Assembly (NCBI GenBank): GCA_035515235.1
Contig: DATJBS010000031.1
Location: 53,523-117,522, forward strand
Reading direction: 5' to 3'
Length of the DNA: 64,000 nucleotides
Source of the DNA: Chitinophagales bacterium
GTDB taxonomy: Bacteria; Bacteroidota; Bacteroidia; Chitinophagales; JADIYW01
This document shows positions 5,976 through 59,847 of the stretch, in pieces. The position numbers and the translations under genes are program-made. The notes below the pieces were generated by a model. That model was not told the DNA's origin. It saw only the letters and a program-made list of their open reading frames with translations, and made no database searches. Within the stretch, counting starts at the first letter, position 1. Every line of letters begins with the position of its first letter.

Positions 5976-6093
5976 ATCCCGAAGGGATTAAATATTTATA
6001 GAAGTTGGTTGGTTAATTAAATGTTCGACCCTGAAAGGGTCGTATCCTTTATTTGTATTGGTTTATTATAAATATATGAACCACTTTGGGTTC
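5976..6093. repeat. three short stem-loops downstream of parC (atcccGAAgggat 5976-5988, cgacccTGAAAgggtcg 6026-6042, tgaaccACTTTGggttca about 6077-6094 followed by a T-run)
   Basis: The inverted repeats were read directly. The first module plus its flank recurs at 9539-9567 (25/29 identical). Confidence 0.6.
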
Positions 6094-9255: not shown

Positions 9256-9299
9256 TTGTATTTAATGTGGCAATGAGATAATGCGGTAATGTGTTAATA

Positions 9300-10084
9300 A
9301 GATAATGATTGCTGGCATGTTCCTCGTTATTGTGGATTTAGTCGGCAATCTTCTAATACATTGCTTAAGAGATTCTGAAACGATTCTGAACTAAATTCAG
9401 AATGACAAGGTTCAGAATGACTGTGTAGTTAACCATAACCATAATGTCATTGCTGGCTTGACCCGCAATCTATAGTATTACTTATAGATTCTGAAACAAG
9501 TTCAGAATGACAAATCGGTAATAATTAAGAATCATGAAATCCCGTAGGGATGACATGTTTATAGAAGATGCATGTTTCTAGATGATATGTTTCTAGCAAA
9601 ACGCCGCGAGAGGGATAGAATGGAGTATCACCCGAAATATCATGGAGGGAAGACGTAATGATAGCCCGACCCGAAGGGGCTCGCCCAAATTATGGTATTG
9701 GGAATAGATTCTGAAACAGAATGACTGCGTGTTTTGTTTTACAATTCGTGTAGAGATCCTTTCAGGATGACATAAGAATAGTTTGCTTCGTTCCTCGCAA
9801 TGACGTATTACAATTCCGTCATTGCGGGCTTGAACCGTAATCTCTATCGTATTATTTATGGATTCTGAAACAAGTTCAGAATGACTGTGTAGTTAACCAT
9901 AACCATAATGTCATTGCGGGCTTGACCCGTAATCTAATGCGTATTTCACAATAGATTCCCAACCAAGTTCAGAATGACAAGTTCAAAATGTTTGTTTCAG
10001 CTAATGAATATAAACGGTCAAACTCTTTTAGGATAAACTATTTTCTTTGGTCTGTCGTCTACTGTCTATTGTCTACCGTAAAAA
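9300..10084. repeat. intergenic field of mosaic hairpin modules
   Basis: The gattctgaaacaagttcagaatgac module occurs at 9487-9511 and 9861-9885, with degenerate copies at 9371-9421, 9707-9725 and 9954-9990. The gtcattgcNggcttgaMccgNaatc module occurs at 9446-9470, 9818-9842 and 9910-9934. A direct repeat of about 100 bp spans 9411-9511 and 9875-9977. Confidence 0.85.
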
Positions 10085-10495: not shown

Positions 10496-11593
10496 CTATA
10501 CGTTAAATCTAAAATGCATCACATCGCCATCTTTCACGATGTATTCTTTTCCTTCTATTCGTAATCTGCCGCTATCTCTACAAGCAGATTCCGAACCGTA
10601 ATGAGTAAAGTCTTCATAAGAAATTACTTCCGCTTTGATAAATCCTTTTTCAAAGTCTGTATGAATTACACTTGCTGCTTGAGGAGCTTTCCAACCATTC
10701 TGAATCGTCCAAGCTCTTACCTCTTGTACACCAGCTGTGAAATAAGTGATTAATTGTAATAATTTGTAAGTCGATTGAATCAATCTATTTAAACCAGGTT
10801 CAGTCAAACCATATTCATCTAAGAACATTTGCTTGTCTTCAGGGTCTTCCAGCTCAGTGATTTGAGCTTCGATAGAGTTGTTGAGAACGATTAATTGTGC
10901 ACCTTCTGCTTCTACAGCTACTCTAAGAGCTTCAGAATATTTATTGCCAGTAGTAATAGATTGCTCATCCACATTGGCTACATATAAAATTGGCTTCTCA
11001 GTCAATAAAAATAAATCTGCAACAGCTACTTTTTCTTCTTTAGTCAATCCTAGTGATAAAACATTTTTACCTTCTAAAAGATGATTTTGAACTCTAGCTA
11101 AAATATCATATTCAGCTTTGATTTTAGTATCAGATTTAGATTGTTTCTCTGTCTTTTTCATTTTCTTCTCGACACTTTCCAAATCTTTAAACTGTAATTC
11201 AGTTTCTATGATTTCTTTGTCGCTGACAGGATTGATTTCACCTTCTTCACGCAAGATATTTTCATCTTCAAAGCATCTAATCACATGAATGATAGCATCT
11301 ACCTCACGAATATTCCCTAGAAATTTATTCCCCAAACCTTCACCTTTACTTGCACCTTTTACAAGACCTGCGATATCTACTAATTCGATTTGAGTAGGAA
11401 CAGTACGATTTGGGTTGACCAATTCAGCTAATTTGTCCATTCTCTCGTCCGGCACATCCACCAAACCTACGTTTGGCTCGATAGTACAAAAACGATAGTT
11501 CGAAGCTTGTGCCTTAGCACTATTGCTGACCGCATTGAACAAAGTGGATTTTCCTACATTGGGTAGCCCTACAATTCCCGCACGTAATGCCAT
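10496..11593 (-). CDS. ychF: redox-regulated ribosome-binding ATPase YchF
   Basis: GIVGLPNVGKSTLFNA P-loop, the C-terminal TGS-like RAWTI..G..APQAA motif, and a length of 365 aa. Confidence 0.95.
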   Translation of the reverse strand: MALRAGIVGLPNVGKSTLFNAVSNSAKAQASNYRFCTIEPNVGLVDVPDERMDKLAELVNPNRTVPTQIELVDIAGLVKGASKGEGLGNKFLGNIREVDAIIHVIRCFEDENILREEGEINPVSDKEIIETELQFKDLESVEKKMKKTEKQSKSDTKIKAEYDILARVQNHLLEGKNVLSLGLTKEEKVAVADLFLLTEKPILYVANVDEQSITTGNKYSEALRVAVEAEGAQLIVLNNSIEAQITELEDPEDKQMFLDEYGLTEPGLNRLIQSTYKLLQLITYFTAGVQEVRAWTIQNGWKAPQAASVIHTDFEKGFIKAEVISYEDFTHYGSESACRDSGRLRIEGKEYIVKDGDVMHFRFNV

Positions 11594-12150: not shown

Positions 12151-12852
12151 TTACATCTGCTTCGCTACAAAATCCCAGTTGATAATCTCAAACCAATTCT
12201 TGATATAATCACCTCTTCTGTTTTGATAATGAAGATAATATGCGTGTTCCCAGACATCTAATCCTAATAATGGTTTTCCCTTAAATTCAGAAACATTCAT
12301 CAAAGGATTATCTTGGTTAGGAGTGGAGCCGATTTTTAGAGAGTTGCCATCTTTGACTAACCATGCCCATCCTGAACCAAATCTAGTAGCTGCAGCTTTG
12401 CTAAAGTTTTCTTTGAAAACTTCCATCGAACCAAAATTCGAAAGGATAGCATCTGAAACTTTAGAAGGCATCTCAGAACCTCCAGGAGTCATACAGTCCC
12501 AAAAGAAATTATGATTCCAAGCACCTCCAGCATTGTTTCGTACTTTTGTGCTGTATTTATCAATGTTATGCATTAATGAAAGTGCACTTTTTTCTTTTAT
12601 ATCTTCTGCGGCAATCGCTTCATTGACATTCTTTACATATGCAGCGTGATGCTTCGTATAATGAATGTTCATAGTTTCTTTATCTATCTGAGGCTCTAGT
12701 GCATCAAATGCATAAGGAAGCTTATTTTGCTCAAACTCAAAAGCTTTCTTGCATTCTGTAGAAGCAAATACTTCATTAGTTATAAATGGAACTGTTATCA
12801 GTGTGGCAGCGGATGCTTTTGTAGTATTAACGAGAAAGTTACGACGGTTCAT
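12151..12852 (-). CDS. Fe/Mn-family superoxide dismutase with a twin-arginine (Tat) signal peptide
   Basis: MNRRNFLVNTTKASAATL is a Tat motif. HHAAYV, WNHNFFW and DVWEHAYY are SOD metal-ligand motifs. Confidence 0.9.
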   Translation of the reverse strand: MNRRNFLVNTTKASAATLITVPFITNEVFASTECKKAFEFEQNKLPYAFDALEPQIDKETMNIHYTKHHAAYVKNVNEAIAAEDIKEKSALSLMHNIDKYSTKVRNNAGGAWNHNFFWDCMTPGGSEMPSKVSDAILSNFGSMEVFKENFSKAAATRFGSGWAWLVKDGNSLKIGSTPNQDNPLMNVSEFKGKPLLGLDVWEHAYYLHYQNRRGDYIKNWFEIINWDFVAKQM

Positions 12853-15795: not shown

Positions 15796-17067
15796 TTACT
15801 TAGTATATATTTTATGCCAAACATCAGTATAGCCCATCATAACTACTCCTAAAGCATGAGCTTTGGAGAATAAGAAGGGTTGACTGGAGATTAATTCAGA
15901 CATCACTTGCTGAATGATAGTATCTTGAATTCCTCTTGACTTGCATTGCTCTATAAATTGCATAGTATGTTTTTGAGGGTCATCCTCTAAAAGATATCTA
16001 TACATCATATCTGCAAAGTCATAGCCTAAACCTGACATTTTTACAATAATTTCTAGAAACTGCTCTTTATATACGATATATCCATATGTGGATTCTAAAG
16101 GCTCGTATAGGCTTTCGTGTAGAAATCTCGCTTCTTTTTCCTTTAAATGTATGGATTTGATGCCATCTACATACTCCATTAGTGAAGGTCTGCTTAATGC
16201 ATATGCTAGCGCTAAACTTTCTAAAGTATTGGTATCAAATTCAAACATGATTTCTCTCATATTATCCTTATGAAAAGGAAATATTTCGGAACTATTCTCT
16301 GATAGAATATATTCAAATACTTTAGGATCATCCCATGTTTCAGGATAAATCTGGACTTTGTTTTTAGAGTAGATGTCTTGAAGGTGATCTAATTGCTTTA
16401 AGCCAAAAATATCAAATTTGAAATACCCTAGACTCTGTAAATATTTCACAGGAAAGTCTACTACTAAATTGTCAGAATTGCACTCAATTTCTAAAGTAGG
16501 AGCAGTTGGTTCAAGTGCTTTGTCAGAAATAACTACACCACTTCCTGCTGGCGAAAAGTACATAGTAGCATCGGATGTATCGCTTTCGTCGTCATTACTT
16601 CCAGCTAAAACACCAATATGTGCTTCTCCAAATAAATCTTTAAGGTATTGAATCACTCGCTCTCTATTGTCAAATGAAACATCTAATGAGAAAGAAGGTA
16701 AAAATCCTGCTCTAGGATTGAAGAATCTCTGATATGGAAGCCCTCTTACTAAAGCATTCACTTGAGTAAGACCTAAACATTTTGCTACCAAGCTGGAGTT
16801 GATTACTCCTCTTCCTGGTCCTACGCAAATTTGATTGGATTTGCAAAAATCAATAATGGATTTCCACAGCAAAAAATAGTCTTTTAAACCAGATTTTTCA
16901 ATGTGGTTCAATTCTTCATTAATTCTGTCTAAAATGGAATCGTCGATGTGACTGATGTGAATTTTTCCTCCTTCGTAAACCATGCTTTTGAATTCTGAGA
17001 ATTCAATATTTGCATACTTATAGTCGATATCTGAAACTATAGAAGGCAATTCTGGAAAGTTGCTCAT
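15796..17067 (-). CDS. stand-alone DnaE (DNA polymerase III alpha) core-like protein, probably catalytically inactive
   Basis: Colinear motifs were found by eye: [62 protein letters not shown] and [10 protein letters not shown]. There are no PHP, beta-clamp or OB regions. Confidence 0.6.
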   Translation of the reverse strand: [423 protein letters not shown]

Positions 17068-56490: not shown

Positions 56491-56838
56491 TTAATGCTTA
56501 CGGCAGCAGCCATCCAATTTAGCAACTGATTCTGCAGGAGCTTTCATATCATCAGCATCGTAACCTGCATTGTTTATTGTTTTTCTGATAGCATCAGGAT
56601 GAATTTTATTGGCATCATAATCCACTGTAATAGTGTTCGCTTTAGCATCAATTTTCACTTTTTTTATTCCTTTGTTGGATCTCACATTGATATTAATATT
56701 GTTTCCACAACTACCGCATTGAAGACAATGGTCACAATAAATTTGTGTTTCTATTACAATAGTTTGAATGTTTGAGTTTTTTGCAAACACGCTACTAGAA
56801 AGTGCAGTTAATAATAAAGTGAATATGATTTTTTTCAT
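56491..56838 (-). CDS. secreted heavy-metal-associated (HMA)-like domain protein
   Basis: Signal peptide, a YCDHCLQCGSCGNN Cys cluster, an HMA-like core (ITVDYDANKIHPDAIRKTINNAGYDA), and a C-terminal GCCRKH. Confidence 0.65.
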   Translation of the reverse strand: MKKIIFTLLLTALSSSVFAKNSNIQTIVIETQIYCDHCLQCGSCGNNININVRSNKGIKKVKIDAKANTITVDYDANKIHPDAIRKTINNAGYDADDMKAPAESVAKLDGCCRKH

Positions 56839-57352: not shown

Positions 57353-57882
57353 TTACTTTTCACAAATAGAGCAATTGGATTCTCCAGTTAAATGTCCATT
57401 TTTATCAAATTCATATTTACAACATTCGTTGAATCTTTTCTTTAAAATTTCTTTTACTCTTCTAATTCTTACTTTTACATTTTCAAGACTGATGTCTAAT
57501 GTGGCTGCTACCTCTTTTTGTTTTAGGCCTTTTATATAAACTAGTTCAATCACTTCTTTGTAAATCTCGGGCAGTTCATTGATGAATTTATCAAAACAGC
57601 AGATATGTTGATATTGTTGAAGAGCGATCTCTTGATTGCTGTCTATTTCGTCTGTATATACAGTTTCATTATTGAAATAATTGATGATTTCATTTCTTGC
57701 AATTTGAAAACCCAAGCTCTCACTTTTTCTTCATTTTTAAGACTAGAAAGATTTAAATGAATTTTCAAAAAAGTATTTTGGAAAACATCATTTGCAGCAT
57801 TTTTACTCTTTACCTTTTTAAGGATAAAAAAGTAAAGTTCTTGATTGTAATTATTCCAAATCGTTTGCGTTTCCATCTTCAA
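57353..57882 (-). pseudogene. ECF-type sigma-70 factor with a Cys-rich C-terminal extension, split by a 1-nt frameshift in an A4/T4 run (57707-57710)
   Basis: The region-2-like N-terminal ORF (57643..57882) ends ...EEKVRAWVF. The region-4-like C-terminal ORF (57353..57715) starts GFQIARNEIINYF. One extra T restores W-V-F-Q-I-A-R-N. The tail reads CCKYEFDKNGHLTGESNCSIC. Confidence 0.75.
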
Positions 57883-57925: not shown

Positions 57926-58036
57926 TCAACATTCACATTTTGTACATTCGCATTTATCACAAGGACATTCGCTTTCTTTACAATTTTTGCAATTACATTT
58001 TGTGCAATCACAATCGGTACATTTACATTTTCCCAT
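57926..58036 (-). CDS. untracked 36-aa cysteine-rich (13 Cys) metallothionein-like small ORF
   Basis: Manual translation of the minus strand gives MGKCKCTDCDCTKCNCKNCKESECPCDKCECTKCEC-stop. It has a regular CxC/CxxC pattern, lies in the same orientation as the sigma gene, and is followed by a hairpin. Confidence 0.45.
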   Translation of the reverse strand: MGKCKCTDCDCTKCNCKNCKESECPCDKCECTKCEC

Positions 58037-58137: not shown

Positions 58138-58160
58138 GTCGTTATGCTTATAAACAGTTT

Positions 58161-58335
58161 GCTCCTACGGAGCTAGTTTGATGATGATTCTTTTTGGTTT
58201 ACAAACGGTTGGGCTTCTACGGAGCTAGATTGGTGGTGTTTTTCGTTTGCAAAAAAGTATGGTTCCTACGGAGCAGAATTGAGTTTTCACTTTTAAAAGG
58301 CTTTGTTTAAGTTTTTTTATTACTCTGTAGGAGCT
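58161..58335. repeat. REP-like hairpin cluster, 3' side of the RAYT gene
   Basis: gctcCTACggagc at 58161-58173, gcttCTACggagc at 58213-58225, gttcCTACggagc at 58262-58274 and an inverted ctctGTAGgag at 58324-58335. Most carry a (t)tacaaacNgt flank. Confidence 0.85.
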
Positions 58336-58351
58336 AACTGTTTGTTCTGCT

Positions 58352-58813
58352 TTATTCAATCCATTCAAAGAGATATTTTTCATTGTATTCAATTTCATAT
58401 CTTTCTAACATGTCAATATATTCTTTCTTGAATGTTTTGGCTTTATGGTGTTCTTCTTGATTCAATATATACTTGACCACATAATCTATTTGGCTTTTAG
58501 CATATGAAAAAGCGCCATAACCTTCTTGCCAATTGAATTTACCCATTATCCAATTATTGTCATTAATGTATTTGGAGGAGCCTGCCTTAATATCTCTTAC
58601 TAAATTAGAAATTGAAATGTCTGGTTTCATACCCAACAAAATATGAACGTGGTCAGGCATTGCAAAAATTGCTAACATTTTCTGATCTCTATTTTGGACT
58701 ATACCTGTAATGTATTTATGTAATTCTTCTCTCTTGTTTTTTGAAATAAAATTTTGTCTTCCTTTTACGGCAAATACAATTTGGATATAGATTTGGGTGT
58801 AGGTGTTAGGCAT
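58352..58813 (-). mobile_element. IS200-like Y1 (HUH) transposase of the REP-associated (RAYT) type
   Basis: HUH motif in MPDHVHILLG. The conserved C-terminal region YILNQEEHH is present. The gene is 153 aa, a single gene with no tnpB, and is flanked by hairpin repeats. Confidence 0.8.
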
Positions 58814-58834
58814 ATTTGTTGATTTTAATAGGTC

Positions 58835-59090
58835 GCTCCTCCGGAGCTAGATTGGTGGTGGATGCTTTTTGGTTACAAACCGTATGCTCCTACGGAGCAT
58901 AATCGAATTGATAATTTTAAATGTGCAAATCTTATAATTCTAATTTACAAACAAAATTTCATTTTTATCAATAAACGGCATCAGACATACGGGGCTGAAT
59001 TGATTGTATTTTTTGTTTTTATGTATTGTTTGAATAGGTGTTCTTCATTATTGCTCCGTAGGAGCACACCGTTTGTAGCTCCGTAGGAGC
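58835..59090. repeat. REP-like hairpin cluster, 5' side of the RAYT gene
   Basis: gctcctCCggagc at 58835-58847, gctcCTACggagc at 58886-58898, and gctccGTAGgagc at 59053-59065 and 59078-59090. The string ggagctagattggtggtg recurs at 58221-58238 and 58843-58860. Confidence 0.85.
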
Positions 59091-59163
59091 GATCCAAATT
59101 CAAAGACATTTTATCCCAATCCAAATTTATTTATGAATCTGATGATATCATTAAATGCAACAA

Positions 59164-59577
59164 TTATTTTTGTTGACGTTTGATTTCTTTACCTAATCTT
59201 ACGAATTGCCAAAAACCCTTTGCATCTTCTGGATAAGGGATTCCAATAGAATCTATATTTTTAAATTCTTTGTTTTGCTCTCCGTAAATACGAGCGTGCA
59301 AAACGGCAGAGATATAATCTAATAAATCAATTGATGTAAAGATGAGTTTGAAATCATCTTGTAGCTCGTCATTATTTGTAGCAAAACAAAGATTTCCATG
59401 TTTGTTAGCAGGCACAAATGTTAAACCTGTTTTTTGAACGATTTGGTTGATGGTAGTTCTATCGAGATTGATTAATGTCTCTATATCATTTCTATCAATA
59501 AAATCCGATTGGCAGATGTACTTGGTTTCAGTAATCTGCTTGAATAGATCTTGTGTGATTAGAAATTCTTGGTTCAT
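59164..59577 (-). CDS. 137-aa ORF resembling the extreme C-terminus of Type ISP/IIG restriction-modification enzymes (possible gene remnant)
   Basis: FTSIDLLDYISAVLHARIYGEQNKEFKNIDSIGIPYPEDAKGFWQFVRLGKEI resembles the conserved tail of those enzymes (recalled pattern ..DYiYavLhs..Yr..y.efLk.dfPRiP...d...F..l..lG..L). Confidence 0.35.
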   Translation of the reverse strand: MNQEFLITQDLFKQITETKYICQSDFIDRNDIETLINLDRTTINQIVQKTGLTFVPANKHGNLCFATNNDELQDDFKLIFTSIDLLDYISAVLHARIYGEQNKEFKNIDSIGIPYPEDAKGFWQFVRLGKEIKRQQK

Positions 59578-59616
59578 TAAAGAATTTGAAAAATGATTTA
59601 TGATAGAATTAAATTC

Positions 59617-59847
59617 TTAAAATTTTTCTTTCCCATTTGTAATAAGTGTATATCCTTTATGATTATGAATACGATGTTCAAATACATGCTGCTCTTCACA
59701 TTCAAAGCTTAAAATAACTTCAAGTCTGTTTTCCTTATTTAAATTGGTTTTGACTTCTTTCAAATGAGTATATTCAAAATTACATATTGGACAATGTAAT
59801 TGTAACTCATTGGTACCTTTAACATATTCCGTTTCTTTTAAATTCAT
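59617..59847 (-). CDS. hypothetical small protein with a CPIC...ECEEQH motif
   Basis: 76-aa ORF, possibly a partial zinc ribbon. No family was recognised. Confidence 0.3.
   Translation of the reverse strand: MNLKETEYVKGTNELQLHCPICNFEYTHLKEVKTNLNKENRLEVILSFECEEQHVFEHRIHNHKGYTLITNGKEKF

Follow-up and report, generated by a model that had tools for sequence, protein, structure and literature searches.

A single-locus Y1 endonuclease gene of IS200 kinship and an associated family of miniature hairpin repeats in Bacteroidota

Introduction

Is a lone Y1 transposase gene set among short hairpins an insertion sequence (IS), or is it a resident enzyme that lives with repeats of its own? The question is raised by a locus in a 64,000-nucleotide stretch of DNA from a Chitinophagales bacterium (assembly GCA_035515235.1, contig DATJBS010000031.1, positions 53,523 to 117,522 of the forward strand; hereafter the window), where a gene encoding a Y1 protein of 153 amino acids is bracketed by two arrays of hairpins. 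Repetitive extragenic palindromic (REP) sequences and REP-associated tyrosine transposases (RAYT) are the classic example of a transposase that has been domesticated and coexists with non-autonomous repeats of its own; these enzymes belong to class 2 of the Y1 family and are found mainly in proteobacteria. A preliminary description of the window proposed this same architecture, a REP cluster plus a RAYT. The outline stands, since a single-copy Y1 gene is indeed bracketed by inverted hairpins, but the enzyme is not a RAYT, the stem has only 5 bp, there is no GTAG at the hairpin foot and the copy number is low. We favour, with moderate confidence, a REPtron-like partnership in which a resident, single-locus Y1 HUH endonuclease of subclass 1.2, acting on single-stranded DNA (ssDNA), is associated with its own miniature hairpin repeat family.

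Results

Hairpin arrays bracket the Y1 gene

The hairpin core is GCTCC-TAC-GGAGC, a 5-bp stem with a 3-nt loop. Allowing up to two mismatches, GCTCCTACGGAGC has eight matches in the window, all within 58161-59090, when 0.17 are expected and none of 100 shuffles reaches eight. They start at 58161 (+), 58213 (+), 58262 (+), 58322 (-), 58835 (+), 58886 (+), 59053 (-) and 59078 (-), which in ascending order gives + + + - on one side of the gene and + + (one degenerate +) - - on the other. This recovers all the hairpins initially described, four on each side and in both orientations (the one placed at 58324 is 58322-58334). The (t)tAcAAAC-N-GT flank, ascribed to most of them, accompanies five of the eight copies, and the 18-nt string said to be common to both sides, ggagctagattggtggtg, lies at 58221-58238 and 58843-58860. 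The statement that GTAG forms the hairpin centre is literally true, but a more conserved element lies outside the hairpin, the TTCTACAAAC box found 5-7 nt from its foot. The two flanks of the gene are direct repeats of each other (57 nt, 75% identity). The features of the locus are listed here by position and strand.

58149-58274 (+): three same-orientation units at 58161, 58213 and 58262, spaced by 52 and 49 nt; boxes TTATAAACAGTTT and TTACAAACGGTTGG, the third degenerate; homologous to the array on the other side
58322-58346 (-): degenerate inner hairpin of the 3' flank (GCTCCTACAGAGT), with ACAAACAGTTA ahead of it on the minus strand; it starts 17 nt past the stop codon
58352-58813 (-): Y1 HUH endonuclease gene, 153 amino acids, with the subclass 1.2 motifs DHVH, WQ and YILNQEEHH
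58835-58847 (+): inner hairpin (hp1) of the 5'-side doublet, GCTCC-TCC-GGAGC, after AATAGGTC and 21 nt from the start codon
58848-58872 (+): doublet spacer with TAGATTGGTGGTGGAT; it has part of the 18-nt string in common with 58221-58238, and a spacer motif like it is found in Persicobacter
58873-58898 (+): outer unit (hp2) of the doublet on the 5' side, made up of TTACAAACCGTAT as box and the hairpin GCTCC-TAC-GGAGC; 51 nt on from hp1
58985-59003 (+): degenerate unit (cagacaTACGGGGCTGAATTGA), from the repeat-family comparison
59053-59090 (-): two distal units in the opposite orientation (59053-59065 and 59078-59090), GCTCC-TAC-GGAGC, 25 nt apart with the minus-strand box CTACAAACGGTGT between them

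The repeat unit has a conserved box and a covarying stem

The consensus of 211 copies of the unit reads (T)TCTACAAAC-AGGTC-GCTCC-TAC-GGAGC-T, with TTCTACAAAC-AGGTC conserved ahead of the stem. Across 172 clusters, neighbouring units in the same orientation are spaced by 49-51 nt (median 51), and in doublets it is the second hairpin that bears the full TTCTACAAAC box. The commonest arrangements are singles (40), ++ (30), --++ (20) and ++-- (11). The Y1 gene lies at the centre of a --++ palindrome, in which one doublet, pointing outwards, begins 11-35 nt ahead of the ATG and a second 7-24 nt past the stop codon. Palindromic quadruplets of units occur at three loci (L015, L071 and L060).

When only the box was searched, 161 of the 222 matches were followed by a perfect 5-bp hairpin, compared with 4 at a control offset, and about 75 of the units found in this way have other stems (among them GCCCC, ATCCC, GTCCC and GCCTC). 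We analysed pairing in 127 units, a set that excludes the sequences used as bait and is hence not selected on its stems. Pairing was found in 71% of cells, against 52.1 ± 1.4 after shuffling (0 of 500 shuffles reach the observed value), and the stem covariation score was 0.488, against 0.217 for shuffled units and 0.12-0.20 for slid partners. The stem of the repeat is maintained by compensatory changes. No Rfam family covers the hairpins, a match to MIR8562 at 22 bits being noise. In the literature that could be searched we found no description of the repeat: the motif string retrieves only unrelated primer matches, and the RepRanger paper is silent on it. Two other identities were considered for the arrays and rejected, a CRISPR-like array, since the spacers are repeats of one another, and terminators, since the stem is weak and has no T-run.

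The hairpins recur around homologous genes and change with the protein clade

We compared the flanks of homologous genes in Flavobacterium branchiophilum, Belliella marina, a 96%-identical relative and 12 further genomes. Hairpin arrays flank the Y1 gene in all of the 16 full-length loci examined. The same hairpin, with a GTA loop, lies 11-85 nt before the ATG in every full-length case and, with a TAC loop, 7-24 nt past the stop codon in most. The common geometry is hairpin(GTA)-GACCTGT..ATG ... stop..ACAGGTC-hairpin(TAC), in which the two hairpins are inverted relative to each other and the flank motif faces the gene. The hairpins abut the open reading frame (ORF) of Y1 and hence leave no room for separate IS ends. 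Y1 is also the only gene family recurrently bracketed by the repeats or adjoining them; one integrase and one 464-aa ORF were singletons.

The stem differs between clades of the protein. It is GCTCC in clade A. Clade B, whose proteins are 57% identical, has the stems ACCCC, ATCCC and GACCC with the box TTCTACAAACAT, and the Bernardetia Y1 gene (59.5% identical) has GTTGC with TTCTACAAATAT. Further away, a 46%-identical clade has a different hairpin, with a 6-bp GACTTC stem in tandem units of about 57 nt, and the Persicobacter Y1 gene (40% identical) has several other CCC/GGG stems. The stem sequence thus changes with the protein clade while the box persists.

Arrays also differ between close relatives. 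In metagenomic strains with an identical Y1 protein at one locus (L130-L137, 3472-4230), the gene is followed by 2, 4, 5, 6 or 7 units of GATACAAACATGCG-ACCCC-TYC-GGGGT, and upstream hairpins are absent from this lineage. Two strains of F. branchiophilum have 3 and 5 units. The Bernardetia array, on a 602-kb plasmid, was found by BLAST in only 2 places, its units being too short for BLAST. In three families, Y1 genes of subclass 1.2 lie inside type I restriction-modification (R-M) operons: Belliella (L007, 5361-13765), Saprospiraceae (L138) and Flammeovirgaceae (L139-L141). In Belliella, hairpin doublets fill each intergenic gap of the hsdS/hsdS/integrase/Y1/hsdR locus.

The enzyme is related to IS200 transposases and not to RAYT

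The 153-aa protein matches the Pfam family Y1_Tnp (PF01797; E = 1.4e-25, 90.2 bits against a cutoff of 23) and contains the motifs PDHVHILL, NWQEGY and KYILNQEEHH. The ORF translation and Pfam agree with the initial identification of an IS200-like Y1 protein from its HUH and C-terminal YILNQEEHH motifs. The motifs of the catalytic site are intact, and DHVH and Y115-x3-Q119 are invariant across 39 homologs. An identical protein is on record from a Chitinophagales metagenome-assembled genome. The suggestion that the enzyme is a RAYT had to be abandoned. The protein passes the NCBIfam cutoff of the transpos_IS200 equivalog (72.3 bits against 55) and fails that of REP_Tyr_transpos (40 bits against 80). 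Its catalytic motif is Y-x3-Q and lacks the RAYT signature Y-x3-NP. By sequence, the closest solved structures are TnpA of ISDra2 (2xm3, E = 4e-5) and of IS608, while TnpA_REP of E. coli (4ER8) gave no match at E <= 0.01. An AlphaFold model of the protein (pLDDT 77) retrieved TnpA of the IS200/IS605 family at Foldseek ranks 1-29 and TnpA_REP 4ER8 at rank 30; the predicted fold thus resembles IS200/IS605 TnpA solved with hairpin DNA.

Subclass 1.2 of the Y1 enzymes was described as low-copy proteins of about 148 aa from Bacteroidetes and Cyanobacteria with the motifs DH[IV]H, WQ and Y-x3-Q-x2-HH (Quentin et al. 2018, BMC Genomics 19:475, PMC6006769). Judged by motif only, without the hidden Markov model (HMM) of those authors, our enzyme belongs to this IS200-related subclass and not to RAYT. 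Its occurrence is also that of the subclass (low copy number, non-IS-like behaviour, in Bacteroidetes or Cyanobacteria), with one copy in the window and one locus returned per protein look-up. Neither a tnpB partner nor a second Y1 copy is present in the 64-kb window. The preliminary description was therefore right that the gene lacks tnpB and is single-copy, where an ordinary IS200 might have many identical copies. Homologs number in the thousands, at 75-85% identity over orders of Bacteroidota, and clustering at 50% left 193 representatives at E <= 1e-30. PADLOC places the protein in no catalogued defence system. Among related proteins, P0121, P0124, P0129 and about 20 others, of about 290-320 aa, have two Y1 domains in tandem (Pfam confirms two Y1_Tnp stretches in P0121); by their sequence they look like single-chain 'dimers' of subclass 1.2.

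The gene behaves as a resident

One Y1 protein, observed in 96 sample blocks, has the same neighbours in each of them. The gene is syntenic across Flavobacterium species: in four Flavobacteriaceae it has the fadB-like gene on one side and the thiolase gene on the other, and its synonymous divergence (dS of about 1.5) is close to that of thiolase (1.7). The locus is also common to the window and a relative with 84% nucleotide identity in the backbone. Among 14 genes of clade-A type, the ratio of non-synonymous to synonymous divergence (dN/dS) is 0.04-0.08, and every one of them has exactly 153 codons. The Y1 gene is under strong purifying selection, and its behaviour is that of a resident and not of an active IS.

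Between the window (58171-58910) and a homologous locus, L002 (9906-10646), the Y1 module has 91.6% nucleotide identity, against 81-84% for its neighbours; its dS is 0.19, against 0.94 for the adjacent 5'-nucleotidase gene, i.e. the module is about five times less diverged. This suggests either a recent exchange of the module or constraint on synonymous sites. The protein tree departs from taxonomy, with 84% identity to a member of the Cyclobacteriaceae and 56% to members of the Chitinophagaceae.

The repeats are dispersed away from Y1 genes

To describe dispersal, a single genome of each species was searched for AAACNGNNNGCTCCTACGGAGC (18 specified bases), a pattern for which about 17 chance matches are calculated in the whole collection. 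The figures rest on at least 120 8-kb blocks from 99 genomes. Among the matches listed, 99 of the 120 blocks (about 80%) have no Y1 homolog and 21 have one, and 18 genomes were matched on at least two contigs. The early hint of dissemination thus holds for the hairpin together with its flank in many genomes. The blocks are mostly from Bacteroidota, with others from Acidobacteriota, Planctomycetota, Desulfobacterota, Nitrospirota and Verrucomicrobiota. Several of the sites outside Bacteroidota are multi-hairpin palindromes recurring within a genome, and hence are not chance matches. Dispersed sites favour the 3' ends of genes (31 convergent, 51 tandem and 7 divergent). Neither orientation relative to the upstream gene is preferred (17 co-oriented, 22 anti-oriented), which argues against a strand-specific role in RNA. 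Viral contigs gave no Y1 homolog and only 2 motif matches, from which we conclude that the system is not phage-borne.

In the window, box-plus-hairpin sites number 7, against 0.6 in shuffled sequence. Two places had been singled out as carrying similar hairpins, 5976 and 9539. Their stem is ATCCC...GGGAT, so the 13-mer is not the same, while the flank box ...ATGTTTATAGAA is held in common.

5976-6057 (-): dispersed composite of two hairpins, ATCCC-GAA-GGGAT with TAAATATTTATAGAAG and CGACCC-TGAAA-GGGTCG with ...TTTATTTGTA; resembles the units flanking clade-B Y1 genes
9539-9567 (-): dispersed unit whose stem differs (ATCCC-GTA-GGGAT), with the box, read on the minus strand, in the GACATGTTTATAGAAG that follows

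The second of these sites lies in an 830-nt intergenic region (9256-10084) packed with other repeats, about five GATTCTGAAAC...GTTCAGAATGAC hairpins and about four copies of GTCATTGCGGGCTTGACCCGYAATCT.

A 632-kb replicon of Persicobacter was covered whole by the pattern census. A composite palindrome of about 260 nt surrounds its only Y1 gene. The same composite recurs six times without the gene within 13 kb, and about five partial sites lie on the rest of the replicon. Where the gene is missing, its place between the inner hairpins is taken exactly by a spacer of 48 nt. On the Persicobacter plasmid CP012861 (at 279-292 kb; L145, 12150-25380), the gene-less composites are interleaved with coding cassettes resembling Rhs/YD-repeat genes, each starting after a conserved core-end sequence.

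Gene neighbourhood

Some features of the neighbourhood are reported here in their own right. In the window, a 36-aa ORF with 14 cysteines (MGKCKCTDCDCTKCNCKNCKESECPCDKCECTKCEC; 57926-58036, minus strand) lies beside a gene with an HMA domain (56491-56838) and an extracytoplasmic function (ECF) sigma factor. It has no Pfam match, is read in a frame other than that of the mechanical ORF list and looks metallothionein-like from its composition. The sigma factor itself is split (57353-57882, minus strand) into two overlapping ORFs, of which 57353-57715 encodes region 4 and 57643-57882 the N-terminal part; the split marks a frameshift, a pseudogene or a sequencing error. On the other side of the locus, a 137-aa neighbour (59164-59847, minus strand) is a fragment of the C-terminal domain of a type ISP/IIG restriction enzyme. 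L002 (7674-9796) differs from the window in the genes that separate the 5'-nucleotidase from Y1: it has genes of 245, 98 and 87 aa, the last called 'Septknot', in place of a 76-aa ORF, and the Septknot gene falls inside the upstream hairpin array, with one half on either side. The F. branchiophilum locus (L003) has two matches to the Flavo-1 RNA (66-68 bits; 1214-1353 and 16621-16761), which are unrelated to the hairpins. There (10605-11021 and 12326-12673), Y1 is followed by a 138-aa DUF1016_N fragment that other Flavobacterium species lack, and a small gene resembling 23S_rRNA_IVP/bAvd interrupts the same fatty-acid oxidation operon.

Discussion

A probable partnership of enzyme and repeats

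How would a partnership between the Y1 enzyme and its hairpins work? By analogy with the biochemistry of IS608/ISDra2 and of E. coli TnpA_REP (PMC3479197, PMC3333891), the enzyme, probably as a dimer, would bind the folded hairpin on ssDNA, e.g. at a replication fork. It would read the sequence of the foot and the box, cut nearby through its tyrosine, and could then rejoin the strands. Such cutting and rejoining may add, delete and occasionally disperse hairpin units, which would make the enzyme the agent of their spread. This would explain why arrays of variable length are found near the gene and a few gene-less copies elsewhere. The phasing of about 50 nt might arise from insertion of each new unit directly 3' of the box of one already present, or from measurement of the spacing by the dimer.

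Several observations weigh against this interpretation. The hairpins are inverted around the gene, which the excision model of IS608, with its hairpins on the same strand, fails to explain. Replication slippage, not the enzyme, could have changed the array lengths. In Persicobacter the copies are mostly within 13 kb of the gene, and segmental duplication could account for their spread. The repeats are few: among the matches listed there are 1-5 exact-pattern loci per genome, far below classical REPs; a total of 538 kb at distances above 1.5 kb from the primary matches contains about 4 further clusters (1 in the control), or about 1 per 130-180 kb; and the 64-kb window has no hairpin of the exact type outside the locus, only two or three of related type. 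The hairpin is weak (-3.2 kcal/mol as DNA). Finally, repeats occur in metagenome-assembled genomes of Acidobacteriota, Planctomycetota and Desulfobacterota, phyla from which subclass 1.2 has not been reported.

Alternative explanations

The locus could instead be an ordinary autonomous IS of the IS200 type with tnpA only, transposing rarely, the flanking hairpins being its ends and the gene-less doublets and quadruplets deletion derivatives resembling miniature inverted-repeat transposable elements (MITE) or palindrome-associated transposable elements (PATE). We regard this as unlikely. The affinities of the protein (the IS200 equivalog cutoff passed, ISDra2 and IS608 TnpA as nearest solved relatives) are those of such an element, and IS200 itself has no tnpB. 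The gene-less palindromes have both arms of the gene-bearing copy, with a spacer weakly similar to the gene ends, and the departure of the protein tree from taxonomy fits a mobile gene. A recent transfer would fit the low synonymous divergence that separates the module of the window from that of L002. Against this explanation, we found one locus per genome or look-up, without the near-identical multiple copies of subclass 1.1. The gene keeps the same position in four Flavobacteriaceae, with a dS on a par with thiolase, an identical protein stands at the same locus in 96 sample blocks, and viral contigs lack it. The ends are also not those of an IS200, since they are inverted and not on one strand, and each flank is an array of 2-9 units in place of one left end (LE) and one right end (RE).

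Alternatively, the hairpins may be structural or regulatory elements of the host (terminators, mRNA stabilisers or protein-binding sites) that owe nothing to the enzyme, the Y1 gene having inserted in or near them. Some IS elements do target REPs. The bias of the repeats towards 3' ends, their avoidance of divergent promoters, the absence of a nearby Y1 gene from most sites (among the matches listed) and their presence in phyla without a documented Y1 subclass would all be expected of host elements. We nevertheless find this explanation improbable, because the hairpins abut the ORF, which does not fit an IS with separate ends, and because the stem sequence shifts with the Y1 clade. Nor do the sites have a preferred orientation relative to the upstream gene; a 5-bp stem of -3.2 kcal/mol without a T-run makes a poor terminator, and no Rfam family corresponds to it.

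A more speculative idea, to which we give little credence, is that the hairpin doublets are single-strand recombination sites at which the HUH enzyme would capture, excise or shuffle neighbouring gene cassettes, in the manner of an integron but with Y1 chemistry and no tyrosine recombinase. Hints in this direction are the doublets in every gap of the Belliella hsd locus, the Y1 genes in type I R-M operons of two further families, the gene-less composites that separate Rhs/YD-like cassettes in Persicobacter, and the 87-aa gene that lies between the halves of the upstream array in L002 and is missing from the window, the gene content beside Y1 differing between the two. Only Y1 recurs among the genes bracketed by hairpins, so that search does not support a general role in cassettes. 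Finally, a local tandem or segmental duplication, chance or a slippage artefact is hardly credible as the source of the eight hairpins, since, although the flanks are direct repeats (57 nt at 75%, with the identical 18-nt string) and have no exact copy elsewhere in the window, it is refuted by the same unit and geometry around homologs in at least three orders and by the unit in 99 genomes, and the stem covaries.

Comparison with known systems

The partnership that we favour resembles the REPtron, which joins a class 2 enzyme (RAYT, also TnpA_REP) to REPs and their composites, the bacterial interspersed mosaic elements (BIME) and REPINs. Both have a single-copy, vertically persistent Y1 gene bracketed by inverted cognate hairpin repeats. 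In both, copies away from the gene occupy intergenic 3' regions, alone, as palindromic dimers or in clusters whose orientation alternates, and the repeat type co-varies with the enzyme lineage. The inverted dimers and mixed-orientation clusters typical of REPINs are found here as 20 '--++' and 11 '++--' clusters. Even the puzzle of inverted ends is the same. The differences start with the enzyme branch, which has Y-x3-Q and not Y-x3-NP and retrieves 4ER8 only at fold rank 30. The stem has 5 bp, against 7-20 bp in REPs. There is no GTAG at the 5' foot, which reads ACAGGTC; CTAC/GTAG occurs in the loop region and in the TTCTACAAAC box 5-7 nt away. Units in the same orientation follow a strict period of about 50 nt, unlike those of REPtrons, and they number from a few to tens per genome, against more than 100 REPs.

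Elements of the IS200/IS605 family (IS200, IS608, ISDra2), with their PATE and MITE derivatives, are closest in sequence and fold. They share small hairpins adjacent to the gene, the tnpA-only organization (IS200) and gene-less derivatives with the same arms. They differ from our system in that the Y1 gene here has a single locus, syntenic over genus-level divergence, with no near-identical copies found, and in that its inner hairpins are parts of multi-unit arrays and inverted relative to each other, instead of both lying on the top strand. The TnpA_Y1 enzymes of class 3, from Planctomycetes and Acidobacteria (e.g. Solibacter usitatus, with about 600 hairpins), have been called intermediate between IS and REPtron (PMC6006769). 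Going by their description, on which this comparison rests, their motif is of the Y-x4-Q type, akin to class 1, and the gene is flanked by several short hairpins of atypical form, which also occur elsewhere. They are unlike our enzyme in having NHVH, about 178 aa, a CnGA foot and a high copy number.

The protein itself agrees with subclass 1.2 in its motifs, its length (about 148-153 aa), its specific C-terminal tail, its low intragenomic copy number, its occurrence in Bacteroidetes and its non-IS behaviour. What disagrees is the presence of a 5-bp hairpin plus box that brackets the gene and is dispersed, which contradicts the description of the subclass and not the membership of the protein. 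In that description, REPs are entered as 'no' for subclass 1.2 in Table 1, and the manually found REPs of Table S1 include none from this subclass (PMC6006769). The REP finder used there accepted only stems of 7 bp or more with GT[AG]G at a distance of 0-2 nt (PMC6006769), and would hence miss the 5-bp hairpins reported here.

These results indicate that a second branch of Y1 enzymes, inside the IS200 clade, has a cognate repeat family of its own, where the 2018 description recorded no repeats. The family is unusual in its ultra-short hairpin, its distal TTCTACAAAC box, its strict phasing of about 50 nt and its conservation across orders of Bacteroidota and apparently beyond. REP-finding rules built on GTAG and long stems miss whole families of this kind. 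The repeat provides a compact candidate substrate of about 30 nt, defined in sequence (TTCTACAAACAGGTC-GCTCCTACGGAGC-T), for asking how Y1 enzymes read a hairpin together with a guide or box. The system as a whole would offer a natural intermediate between IS and REPtron in which to ask how domestication happens.

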